Virus record (IMG/VR): IMGVR_UViG_2595698411_000001
Span: 37,241-101,240 of that record
Strand: one strand, 5' to 3'
Length of the DNA stretch: 64,000 bases
Source: a virus
Taxonomy: Duplodnaviria > Heunggongvirae > Uroviricota > Caudoviricetes > Schitoviridae
Below the pieces are notes generated by a model, which ran no database searches, was not told where the DNA came from, and saw only the letters and a program-made list of their open reading frames with translations. Shown one piece after another: positions 28,992-31,504 of the stretch (position 1 is the stretch's first letter; the number at the start of each line of letters is the position of its first letter). The position numbers and the translations under genes were made by a program.

Positions 28992-29249
28992 ATGAAAAAA
29001 CGACTAGCGCTTGCAACAGCTGCATTGCTGTTTGCATCAACCGCTCTTGCGACCGAAAAACCGGTACGGCACTATGAAGTAGATGCTTGGGGTTTTGACC
29101 CTGACATTTACGAATTTACCCCAATCGGCCATAACCACATGACTTGCCTGATTTTAGTATCAGGCGGTGACACTTCAGCAGGCATTACGTGCTTCCCTAA
29201 AGACCGTGTACCTAAAGTCAAAGTTGAAGAGGTAAAAAATGAAAGCTGA
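28992..29249 (+). CDS. secreted small protein
   Basis: MKKRLALATAALLFASTALA signal peptide. Confidence 0.5.
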   Translation: MKKRLALATAALLFASTALATEKPVRHYEVDAWGFDPDIYEFTPIGHNHMTCLILVSGGDTSAGITCFPKDRVPKVKVEEVKNES

Positions 29250-29775
29250 ACTAGTGCTGCACAGCAATGACGACCTCCTTTGTGTAAACGCTGCTCGTGT
29301 TTCAATGGACAAAGAGTCAAAACTATTTACTTTCCGTAAAGATAAACCAAAAGGCTCAGATGAAGGTCTGGTACATTATCTAGCGGACCATCGCCATTGG
29401 ACACCTTTCAGCCATGCGCGTTTTACAATCGAAGCTAACGACGTATTTATTAACTTACTGAACGTAAACCCAGAAGATATCGCTTCTGCAGTGTGGAGAA
29501 CTGATCCTCTAAAAGGTAGTTTTAAATTCCGTACATCGTTGTTTGGTTGGGCAAACCTGATTAAAAAAGGTTTTGTGTTCGATCATTACGTTGGTGCAGT
29601 AGTAAATGTACTTAAACAGCATGTACCGCACTCTCTTAAAGCACTACTGCCAGAGATCGGTGACAACGTTAAATCGCGGTTCCCAGTATGGGAAACTGAA
29701 GACGAAACAGATCCTGCGTTTATTGACGTAACAATGCGCGAAACTATTCCTATTTTTATCGCACGTCAACGGTAA
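29239..29775 (+). CDS. thyX: flavin-dependent thymidylate synthase ThyX, N-terminal part (5' exon) with an in-frame ~100-aa insertion
   Basis: [10 protein letters not shown]...[26 protein letters not shown] aligns to ThyX ...AARVS...HRVGNIFRHSSTLEHLYYNFEI and T. maritima HETPFEHIVFTFHV. The C-terminal IPIFIARQR aligns to T. maritima APIFVARQW. The ORF stops where the RHR motif should follow. Confidence 0.65.
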   Translation: [178 protein letters not shown]

Positions 29776-29841
29776 ACTACTGCTATTTGTCGTTAGCTAT
29801 GCTATGCTCATATATCCAGCAACAAACAAAGAAAAAACAGT

Positions 29842-30507
29842 ATGTTGAAAGATAGAGCCGGCGATCAAGTTACCCGTGTATGTGATGACTGTGGTGATGA
29901 AAAACGAGTCAGTTATTGGAACGTCTACAAGAAAGATGCCCACCGTTGTTATCGGTGCAATAACAAACTGACCAACTTGGGAAAAACGCCCTGGAATAAA
30001 GGGCACAAGCAACAACCCAAGAATGTTGGAAATATCTATACCCACTCAGACGGCTACCCGATGGTGTGGGTAGGTAAGACCAACACAAACCATGGATATA
30101 TGCCTGTTCACAGATTGGTAATGAGCGACCTTAATGGACGCTTGGTTACCAAAGAAGAAAAGGTACATCACGTAAACGGAGACAAAGAGGATTTCAGGCC
30201 TGTAAACCTGTTCCTCTGTAACAATATGTCCCACCACCGAAAAGTACATGCACAGCTTGAAACGCTGTCTATGTCTTTAGTGAAAATGGGGCTTATTGAG
30301 TTTGATCACGCTAAAGGCGAGTACAGCTTAAGCCGCCCTATGGAGAAATTCATAGAGGAAAAACTGGGTGAATTGCTGGAAACCCCTAACGAGAAAGACG
30401 AGGGCAATCAGCAGCCAAGCTCTGCAGAACTTGCAGAGAAGGTTCAACGACTATTCCGTGAGGAAGTACACCAGAAGTCTGGTGGAAGCGCCCAGCCCCT
30501 GCCGTAA
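29842..30507 (+). CDS. HNH homing endonuclease
   Basis: VHHVNGDKEDFRPVNLFLCNNMSHHRKVH is an HNH motif. The N-terminus has Zn-finger-like CDDCGD...CYRCNNK. Confidence 0.7.
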   Translation: MLKDRAGDQVTRVCDDCGDEKRVSYWNVYKKDAHRCYRCNNKLTNLGKTPWNKGHKQQPKNVGNIYTHSDGYPMVWVGKTNTNHGYMPVHRLVMSDLNGRLVTKEEKVHHVNGDKEDFRPVNLFLCNNMSHHRKVHAQLETLSMSLVKMGLIEFDHAKGEYSLSRPMEKFIEEKLGELLETPNEKDEGNQQPSSAELAEKVQRLFREEVHQKSGGSAQPLP

Positions 30508-30571
30508 GTAGGGTGATGATATAGTCTCTTCTGCATGGAAACATGCAGCAGTTCATAGTTTAGGAGACTGG

Positions 30572-31039
30572 ATGTGGTACAAAATCTACAGACACACAAG
30601 TCCTAGTGGTAAATCATATATAGGGATTACTTCTGAGGATACATATACAAGGTTCAGGAAACACTTACGTAAGGCTAGATTTGGATCTACAACCAATTTC
30701 CATAAAGCAATACGTAAGTACGGTGAAGATTGCTGGCAGTCAGAAATACTGGACGCCTTCTATACTGAGGATAAGAAAGAAGCATACGAAAAAGAGCAAT
30801 CTTGGATTGATTCTGAACAACCTGAGTATAATATGGATTGTGGTTTTGGGTGGAATATTACAGACAGGCGTGGTGACAAGAACCCGATGTATGGGAAATT
30901 GTCAGGAAACGCACACGGGGTCAGCATCAAAGGTGAAATTTTCTTATCCCTCACCTTAGCTGCTGAGCACTTTTCCGTGAATCGAGGAACAATCAGCAGG
31001 TGGATTAAGTCCAGAGAAGACTGTTTTAAACTAAACTAA
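30572..31039 (+). CDS. GIY-YIG homing endonuclease
   Basis: MWYKIYRHTSPSGKSYIGITSEDTYTRFRKHLRKAR is a GIY-YIG motif. AGGAGA ribosome-binding site upstream. Confidence 0.7.
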   Translation: MWYKIYRHTSPSGKSYIGITSEDTYTRFRKHLRKARFGSTTNFHKAIRKYGEDCWQSEILDAFYTEDKKEAYEKEQSWIDSEQPEYNMDCGFGWNITDRRGDKNPMYGKLSGNAHGVSIKGEIFLSLTLAAEHFSVNRGTISRWIKSREDCFKLN

Positions 31040-31504
31040 GTGAACGGGCGGGGAATAACGTACCCCGTCGAAGGTAAAGTTAAACACATGATTGGTACCA
31101 CCTACAATGAGGTGTCACGCAGATACGTAGATGATACACCTGAGTTCTACCATATTGACGAGTGGCGCAGTCGTCCTGACGGTTCGATCAAACAAGGTAG
31201 TGGCGGTATTCACCCTGAAAGCGCAGCAATGTCTCTGTTTGCTAGAGGCCGTGTCACAGCAATGGCTGAAGACTACGATGAAAACATTGAAGCTGGTTTT
31301 GCGCCAGAACAAGTACGCAGTTTGTTGCCACAGAACATGCTCACTAGTTACTACGTCACTGCGTCATTAAACGCGTGGAAACGTGCTTATGACCAGCGTA
31401 TCGACGGCCATGCCCAAAAAGAAATTAACGACCTGGCGCTACAGTGGGTAACAATACTAAACGACTGCCCACACGCCCAAATCTGGAAAGAAATGTTTAA
31501 GTAA
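31040..31504 (+). CDS. thyX: ThyX C-terminal part (3' exon)
   Basis: ...[15 protein letters not shown] aligns to ThyX [56 protein letters not shown] aligns to the conserved ThyX C-terminal region A.P..Y.T...Y..N.R.L.NF..LR....AQ.EI. Listed GTG start with no ATG. Confidence 0.65.
   Translation: [154 protein letters not shown]

Follow-up and report, generated by a model that had tools for sequence, protein, structure and literature searches.

The stretch of Schitoviridae DNA analyzed here (64,000 nt, positions 37,241 to 101,240 of the IMG/VR virus record IMGVR_UViG_2595698411_000001; referred to as the window) bears on its + strand, between positions 29239 and 31504, a thyX gene for thymidylate synthase which is interrupted by an insert containing two putative homing endonuclease genes, one of the HNH and one of the GIY-YIG family. 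The region is 100% identical to the Alteromonas phages vB_AmaP_AD45-P1 to -P4 (KF005317-20, NC_021532), in the following collectively designated AD45, and window positions are obtained by subtracting 37240 from the record coordinates. In the GenBank and RefSeq entries, the locus is represented by four separate genes, i.e., a thymidylate synthase, an HNH or hypothetical protein, a GIY-YIG homing endonuclease and again a thymidylate synthase, and the intron is left unannotated. A paper naming AD45-P1 was not found in the literature searched. From the sequence alone, an earlier note had claimed that thyX is split by an insert of about 1.3 kb with both endonuclease genes, and all these elements are present where it had placed them, the insert being 1306 nt long.

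Exon 1 (29239..29773) encodes amino acids (aa) 1-178 and the first base of the Phe179 codon, and exon 2 (31080..31504) the second and third bases of this codon, aa 180-319 and the stop. The insert between them, assigned below to group I, covers 29774..31079, is preceded by U and has G as its last base. Both limits can be deduced from a syntenic phage contig (L003) with an intron-less, 92%-identical ThyX and shared neighbors encoding a holin, a dNMP (deoxynucleoside monophosphate) kinase-like protein, a band-7 protein and a DNA ligase. The DNA alignment to this contig breaks precisely between window positions 29773 and 31080 and resumes at the latter, and exon 1 also matches Pfam Thy1. While the intron-less allele reads ...CAGCGCT^TTAAGCAC... 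(^ marking the insertion point; junction sequence CAGCGCTTTAAGCAC), the AD45 allele reads ...CAACGGT[1306 nt]TTAAACAC..., and since the insert starts with A and finishes with G, the boundary cannot slide. U before the insert and G as its last base agree with the boundary rules for group I introns, and excision restores the thyX frame exactly. The final intron nucleotide, omega-G at 31079, closes the conserved 3' motif GAAGGUAAAG.

In the earlier note, exon edges had been approximated by those of the open reading frames (ORFs), with the reservation that the true splice boundaries might differ. The reservation was justified, as exon 2 starts at T31080 and not at 31040 and exon 1 ends at T29773. 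The ORF 29239-29775 (178 aa) corresponds to positions 2-65 of the Pfam Thy1 profile, with its in-frame UAA stop (29773-29775) straddling the 5' splice site, and the ORF 31040-31504 to profile positions 75-186. Exon 2 possesses neither a ribosome-binding site nor a start codon at the junction. Joining T29773 to T31080 results in a 319-aa ThyX with the junction ARQR-F-KHM, and the profile check proposed for the fused exons gave matches spanning both pieces above cut-off, at 112.3 bits for Pfam Thy1 (PF02511; cut-off 24.8) and 94.3 bits for the NCBIfam thyX equivalog TIGR02170 (cut-off 87.9). The ligated thyX mRNA would read ...CAACGGU^UUAAACAC..., i.e., ...GCACGUCAACGGU^UUAAACACAUGAUU... across the junction. 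Uninterrupted ThyX homologs were found in a search of 5.8 billion proteins, the best being 92% identical and 320 aa long; among these, RQRFKH is invariant and is followed by Met in at least 90%.

Five thyX introns lacking a GIY-YIG gene are available for comparison. A distant blastn match of the AD45 intron led to the Vibrio phage pVa5, at adjacent thymidylate synthase and HNH endonuclease annotations, where the RefSeq entry has thyX as two joined exons flanking an HNH gene; the core there scores 99.2 bits in Rfam. The Vibrio phage 1.097.O shows a pVa5-like arrangement annotated as separate genes. Three IMG/VR contigs (L114, L115 and L116) carry introns at the same thyX site and in the same phase as AD45, with group I cores of 100-103 bits and no GIY-YIG gene. 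Introns were not detected at 14 further IMG/VR thyX loci selected for partial matches, one of which has a permuted tmRNA instead.

The ribozyme core of the AD45 intron (30284..30549) is a full-length match to the 253-position Rfam model RF00028, which aligns with 105.7 bits (gathering score 50) at 30284-30548 over model positions 1-253 and ends at P9; an additional hairpin between P7 and P3' we infer to be P7.1/7.2. An Rfam intron search of the insert, recommended in the earlier note, found exactly this one full-length group I core. A second core is not detected in 29000-31700 at E<=1, and a search for a second ribozyme in 30545-31095 at E<=10 yielded nothing intron-like, only chance-level noise of E 4.7-9.7 from unrelated families. 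At the 5' end, the exon strand AACGGU (29768..29773) can pair with an internal guide sequence GUCGUU (29789..29794) to form P1, with U29773, the splice-site U, opposite G29789 in a U-G pair. The corresponding P1 of L115, AGCGGU with GUCGCU, shows a compensatory change versus AD45, and in the Vibrio phage introns the exon ends AAUGU or AGUGU are matched by GUAU or GUACU at the guide position. Each of the six thyX introns has a guide candidate at most 30 nt from its 5' splice site. Other pairings were rejected: the minimum-free-energy leader hairpin, joining the exon end with ACUG(C), leaves the splice-site U opposite A or looped; the position of GCUGU at 30264, after the HNH ORF, is not conserved in the relatives, whereas the leader candidate is present in all six introns; and a 10-bp complement (29809-29818 with 30093-30102), considered as long-range leader stem, is absent from L114 and L115 and was taken as chance.

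The HNH gene (29842..30507) encodes a 221-aa protein with a zinc ribbon and an HNH_3 domain (Pfam, 34.3 bits). About 224 nt at its 3' end double as ribozyme core, from the core start through P8, the stop codon being positioned within the P8 loop. At the corresponding position of thyX, L114, L115, and L116 carry copies with 92, 86, and 63% aa identity, respectively, and the HNH protein of the pVa5 intron is 31% identical. In the codons upstream of the core, the ratio of nonsynonymous to synonymous divergence (dN/dS) is 0.05-0.06. In the codons overlapping the core, however, dS drops about ten-fold, to 0.07 versus 0.68 elsewhere in the comparison with L114 and to 0.15 versus 2.23 with L115, a drop predicted for an RNA under structural selection. 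By its relatives, the HNH gene is an intron-encoded, putative homing endonuclease gene with horizontal spread.

Downstream of the core, the GIY-YIG gene (30572..31039) encodes a 155-aa protein with a catalytic domain and a C-terminal helix-turn-helix, as assigned by Pfam and NCBIfam. It scores 34.9 bits against PF01541 (cut-off 22.6) and 55.5 bits against TIGR01453 ‘group I intron endonuclease’, just under the cut-off of 56.05, and the match of the helix-turn-helix to the I-TevI DNA-binding region is weak (18.7 bits, below the cut-off of 27). The catalytic Tyr, Tyr, Arg, Glu and Asn residues are present when read from the sequence (KIY...YIG...R...E...N). Compared to the nearest homologs, dN is about 0.13 and dS is saturated, with dN/dS far below 1. 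The gene is part of a cassette of about 481 nt (30558..31038, boundaries ±2 nt) inserted in the P9.1 loop, the deletion of which recreates GTTCATA^AGTGAAC. The cassette contains the Shine-Dalgarno sequence AGGAG (30562-30566) and the ORF, and no ribozyme. Outside the ORF, the 3' segment of the intron leaves just 22 nt and 40 nt, comprising the halves of P9.1, P9.2 and the 3' end.

The structure of this tail can be followed in eleven related introns, which were aligned with their ORFs removed. P9 (30531..30548), CUGCAUG GAAA CAUGCAG, is paired in 100% of the cells and five of its seven pairs change on both sides. In P9.2 (31047..31069), GGCGGGG AAUAACGUA CCCCGUC with a conserved UAACG loop, this holds for all seven pairs, with 94.8% of the cells paired. 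For P9, P9.1, and P9.2 together, 98% of the pair cells are standard and two-sided changes are seen at 12 of 18 pairs, a result matched by none of 500 shuffles, and slid controls reach 35-52% pairing. The 5' strand of P9.1 (30551..30563) consists of GUUCA and the 8-nt extension UAGUUUAG, is overlapped by the Shine-Dalgarno sequence and pairs with 31031-31045; the 3' strand (31031..31045) consists of CUAAACUA, a 2-nt bulge and UGAAC and overlaps the final GIY-YIG codons and stop. The 8-bp complement involved (30556-30563 with 31031-31038) lengthens P9.1 to 13 bp around the ORF. Such a closing stem is present in eight cassettes of different introns, each with its own sequence, and cognate flanks pair at a mean of -6.95 kcal/mol versus -3.54 ± 1.69 for non-cognate ones. 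The cognate pair of AD45 reaches -9.9 kcal/mol, which is equaled by none of the 56 non-cognate pairs. As the closing stem lies over the Shine-Dalgarno sequence, translation of the GIY-YIG gene could be restricted while the intron is folded.

Without the cassette, the AD45 intron shares 89.6% identity with the 822-nt intron of L114 and 83.0% with that of L115. The flanking thyX exons, in contrast, are merely about 60% identical, and the ThyX proteins of both contigs are of a short type without the 100-aa insert described below. The intron being far more similar than the exons around it, it must have spread by horizontal transfer among divergent thyX genes. The sequence following P9 in L114 and L115 is GCAG CA GTTC ATAAGA GAAC GGGYGGGG-loop-CCCC..TC GAAGATAAAG up to exon 2, with the empty P9.1 loop being GTTCATAAGAGAAC (empty-loop substrate sequence of L114: GCAGCAGTTCATAAGAGAACGGG). 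AD45 keeps the same string but has 481 nt within the ATAAGA loop, GTTCATA[...]AGTGAAC. An empty P9.1 loop is found in four of the five cassette-free thyX introns, L116 being without a P9.1-like hairpin. By this comparison, the HNH intron appears as the older unit at the thyX site, and the GIY-YIG cassette would have entered its P9.1 loop later, the order resting on parsimony.

Two side observations concern the insertion site. If their last base is G, the Vibrio introns (pVa5, L086 2496-2499; 1.097.O, L087) lie between a Cys and a Phe codon (TGT^...G^TTT), so that the insertion point seems to be 1 nt upstream of that in AD45, L114, L115, and L116 (CGGT^...G^TT). Besides, synonymous divergence between thyX of AD45 and the intron-less L003 is very uneven, with dS values of 0.38 for exon 1, 0.075 for the insert domain alone and 1.15 for exon 2, which hints at mosaic recombination near the intron site. 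Simple co-conversion from L114 or L115 as donors was ruled out as the cause, since exon 2 is not close to theirs.

Taken together, thyX is very probably interrupted by one mobile group I intron that harbors two endonuclease genes and is inserted after the first base of the Phe codon in ARQR-F-KH(M), with the GIY-YIG cassette being a secondary arrival. On the side of sequence comparison, this reading draws on the exact insertion, the single core, the P1 and tail structures, the cassette as a loop insertion, the horizontal spread and the selection on every part, with no sign of decay; splicing, endonuclease activity and homing we infer. Several points weigh against it. P1 is short (6 bp), with one mismatch in L114 and a merely wobble-rich candidate in L116. 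P10 is weak, with two of six possible pairs between 29783-29788 and 31080-31085 when read by eye; P10 is dispensable in many introns. An alternative leader hairpin (29762-29784; also in L115 and L116) can pair the exon end with intron positions +5 to +11, placing the splice-site U opposite A or in a loop. When L114 is compared with L115, its helix also displays a compensatory change, and it might act as a competitor of P1. Finally, the four GUUC/GAAC pairs of the P9.1 stem are invariant in the eleven introns and hence show no covariation of their own, and the order of HNH first and GIY-YIG second depends on parsimony, as stated above.

In the proposed course of events, translation of exon 1 would halt at the UAA straddling the 5' splice site. 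AACGGU would pair with the guide GUCGUU to form P1, the core (30284-30549) would fold, the GIY-YIG loop of 467 nt would be closed off by the 13-bp P9.1 stem, and docking of P9.2 and omega-G31079 would follow. In the guanosine-initiated splicing, two transesterifications would then join U29773 to U31080, resulting in the 319-aa ThyX of the long ‘FKHM’ subfamily. The HNH enzyme would cut or nick the intron-less thyX of co-infecting phages, and repair would copy the intron in (homing); the GIY-YIG enzyme may possibly cleave intron-less alleles too. These splicing and homing steps follow established group I intron knowledge (review PMC3984707).

Alternatively, the intron could be dead or crippled, with splicing abolished by the cassette or by decay, leaving thyX as a pseudogene or as a gene in pieces whose polypeptides cooperate. 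A gene in pieces has a precedent in Aeromonas phage Aeh1, where nrdA is split by mobE, and the weak P10, the deduction of splicing from sequence features and the listing of the ThyX halves as separate proteins in the public record and in PHROGs would fit as well. We consider this unlikely, however, because exon 2 lacks a ribosome-binding site and a start codon at the junction, the break interrupts a codon within the best-conserved motif, and dN/dS of the thyX exons is 0.08 versus the intron-less relative (exon 1, 0.05; exon 2, 0.07). Moreover, synonymous sites are constrained where the HNH gene overlaps the ribozyme, a covarying stem closes the cassette, and ORFs in the tail after P9 recur in other introns (Vibrio phage 1.161.O, Staphylococcus phage Romulus and metagenomic contigs L126-L133).

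The history might also run in reverse, the intron with two endonuclease genes being ancestral and the HNH-only introns of L114, L115, pVa5 and others having precisely lost the cassette. Homing endonuclease genes do decay and vanish, and a loop after deletion would resemble an empty site. This history is distinctly unlikely, as it needs independent, base-precise losses in L114/L115, pVa5 and 1.097.O, leaves L116 without a P9.1 hairpin to be accommodated, and conflicts with the nearest cassette relatives (74-80% aa identity) being found in introns of capsid, tape measure and one further gene and not in thyX. A twintron or two adjacent introns, each endonuclease being encoded in its own ribozyme with sequential splicing, are hardly credible: although two endonuclease families share the insert and fungal mitochondria harbor twintrons as well as side-by-side introns (PMC4964425), one core together with the short remnants around the GIY-YIG ORF, which are the P9.1 halves and P9.2 of the same intron family, and relatives with the same tail but without the ORF leave the twintron unsupported. 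The earlier note had suggested twin or composite introns, or serial invasion of the same site. From these options, a composite intron built by serial invasion is retained, given the relatives without cassette, whereas the twin arrangement falls with the single core and the same site with the finding that a loop of the intron, and not thyX, was hit by the cassette.

The ThyX protein itself deviates from the canonical enzyme in two respects, both of which had been recognized in the earlier note. The codons K180-H181-M182 (31082..31090) occupy the canonical R-H-R position when aligned to RHR of Thermotoga maritima ThyX and lie entirely within exon 2. Among 62 long-type homologs, K and H never vary, and at least 90% have M. 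Of the two explanations offered for KHM, an unusual variant holds, the motif being invariant in uninterrupted homologs, and shifted splice boundaries fail; judged by these homologs, KHM is a fixed subfamily variant and not a splice artefact. The signature RHRxxSxxxxSxR is not matched in the spliced protein, which contains one extra residue but retains the Ser and the last Arg; the substituted residues are R78 (to K) and R80 (to M) in T. maritima numbering. Secondly, the predicted in-frame insertion of about 100 aa without ThyX counterpart is found as a domain of about 103 aa (aa 66-168; 29434..29742), conserved in the subfamily of about 320 aa and absent from relatives of 210-235 aa and from T. 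maritima ThyX, which aligns to aa 4-65 and 169-309. S100, G103, W104, and P130 of this domain are invariant in the 62 long-type (about 320-aa) sequences. AlphaFold models the 92%-identical homolog with a mean pLDDT (predicted local distance difference test) of 91.9; in this model, the insertion is confidently folded into two strands and three helices, its 10-residue blocks scoring 87-97, and Foldseek identifies the rest of the protein as ThyX with T. maritima ThyX as best fold match. The host protein belongs to a large uncharacterized phage/marine ThyX subfamily with K-H-M for R-H-R, some members of which bear the folded 100-aa insert.

GIY-YIG homologs with 50-80% identity directly follow a group I core in at least seven other host contexts, where they occupy the same loop, GTTCAT...AGAGAAC: a primase-helicase gene (Vibrio phage 1.161.O), the genes for ribonucleotide reductase (RNR) alpha (Staphylococcus phage Romulus) and RNR beta (L133), DNA polymerase A (L126) and the major capsid protein (L129-L131), and two further contexts (L127/L128 and L132). 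In the tape-measure gene of L125, the 3' flank alone is kept (AGAGAAC and P9.2), the 5' GTTCA being missing. At 20 IMG/VR loci with more distant GIY-YIG genes (29-47% aa identity), a group I intron was not found, and these genes look free-standing. In L129/L130 (capsid) and L125 (tape measure), a second, HNH-type ORF resides in the same intron and splits the core, the halves of which were located with an nhmmer profile of nine cores. For L129/L130, they correspond to profile positions 9-115 and 137-235 and are about 490 nt apart, and the matches for L125 are weaker. As the HNH proteins of L129/L130 and L125 are unrelated to that of AD45, double introns with HNH and GIY-YIG genes have therefore arisen more than once.

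Tentatively, and at somewhat less than even chances, the GIY-YIG gene may be regarded as an autonomous parasite of this intron family that homes to its P9-P9.1-P9.2 DNA and not to thyX, with GCAGCAGTTCATA^AGAGAACGG as empty site. If true, the cassette could jump between related group I introns of any gene, atop a resident HNH gene. This would explain the identical nucleotide position of the cassette in at least eight host contexts, the three independent double introns, the invariance of the P9.1 stem and loop while adjacent helices covary freely, and why so small an enzyme, having just one helix-turn-helix, is sufficient.

Further arrangements were seen in these introns. L131 is a capsid-intron variant in which a 121-aa ORF replaces the 206-aa one, with another intron just upstream. 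In the RNR alpha gene of Romulus (L089), Rfam detects no intron at the gathering threshold, while the nhmmer profile finds two cores, one at 2188-2462 preceding the GIY-YIG gene and another interrupted by the HNH gene (3495-3583 and 4364-4473). The window itself harbors another intron of group I (Rfam core at 5100-5354, 55.7 bits), which splits a gene at 4302-6595 (+) into the exon ORFs 4302-5132 (...ATPMLYGSS...) and 6272-6595 (...IHDAFIISP...), single-subunit RNA polymerase-like by motifs read by eye. Here, a 313-aa GIY-YIG ORF (5341-6282) directly follows the core, again in the 3' tail.

Among known systems, the T4 introns are an obvious reference, with td (in thyA) carrying I-TevI in a loop and nrdD/sunY carrying I-TevII in the 3' part, in sunY downstream of the core. 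AD45 resembles td and sunY in having the GIY-YIG ORF in a peripheral loop and an in-frame stop at the intron start, and, as in the T4 models, the endonuclease gene is viewed as an invader separate from the ribozyme. In contrast to td, however, the host enzyme ThyX is unrelated to ThyA and two endonuclease families share one intron, and, unlike in T4, relatives of AD45 keep empty and filled states, so that invasion is seen directly rather than via sequence similarity. The ‘endonuclease-gene invasion’ model (Loizos et al., 1994) and collaborative homing (Bonocora and Shub) are outlined in a review (PMC3984707).

At the thyX site itself, the HNH-containing intron of the N4-like Vibrio phage vB_VspP_pVa5 has been published (Katharios et al., 2017, PMC5746245), its authors assigning it to group I from Rfam and the T...G rule. 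It shares with AD45 the host gene and the motif RQ[RC]^FKH, a ribozyme about 71% identical over the core, a homologous HNH gene also running into the core, and the same P9, P9.1, and P9.2 tail with a GAAGGU(U/A)AAG 3' end. Unlike AD45, pVa5 has no GIY-YIG cassette, its P9.1 loop being empty, its splice site is apparently 1 nt upstream and its ThyX is of the short type without the 100-aa insert. Closest with respect to the GIY-YIG gene are the metagenomic introns of L129/L130 and L125, which contain a member of the same clade (74-79% aa identity) after P9, the same 3' flank and an HNH-type ORF. In contrast to AD45, the unrelated HNH gene splits the core at a P6-like position instead of lying 5', the core of L125 is only weakly detectable, and the host genes differ.

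Group I introns with two homing endonucleases are known from fungal mitochondria, for example, cox2-i1 and cox1-i3 of Hypomyces aurantius (PMC4964425). As in AD45, one ribozyme is combined with two endonuclease ORFs, attributed to secondary insertion of a mobile ORF. Unlike AD45, introns of this type are organellar and mostly contain LAGLIDADG/GIY-YIG genes, often one ORF disrupting the other, whereas the AD45 intron has a phage host and combines HNH with GIY-YIG, both ORFs being intact, under purifying selection and in separate RNA parts. No report of a phage group I intron encoding two endonucleases was found in the literature searched, a search that was incomplete and gives no proof of absence.

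Phage group I introns with endonucleases in genes of nucleotide metabolism, an HNH intron at the thyX site (PMC5746245) and fungal introns with two endonucleases (PMC4964425) are already known, while the combination of two families in a phage, the surviving empty-site relatives and the recurrent fixed loop position of the GIY-YIG clade are new. Endonuclease-gene invasion is usually backed by indirect similarity; here, empty (L114, L115) and filled (AD45) sites are available in introns of about 90% identity, and the inserted unit consists of an ORF plus ribosome-binding site, bringing flanks that re-form the hairpin stem. The locus thus represents a natural test case for two endonuclease families sharing one intron, be it by competition, by division of labor between nick and double-strand break, or by different targets.

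For annotation, four published Alteromonas phage genomes and RefSeq show two ‘thymidylate synthase’ fragments which are really one intron-containing thyX, and thyX of Vibrio phage 1.097.O has the same kind of split, likewise unannotated. The separate products of the two thyX exons are full-profile matches to the PHROGs families phrog_23580 (178 aa) and phrog_10644 (160 aa), both named ‘thymidylate synthase’, which suggests that these half-protein families are an artefact of unrecognized introns. A scan of 28900-31700 for promoters and terminators gave none exceeding shuffled expectation. At another locus, L039, a permuted (two-piece, alpha-proteobacterial type) tmRNA (transfer-messenger RNA) gene is located at 2613-2894, just upstream of a thyX fragment.

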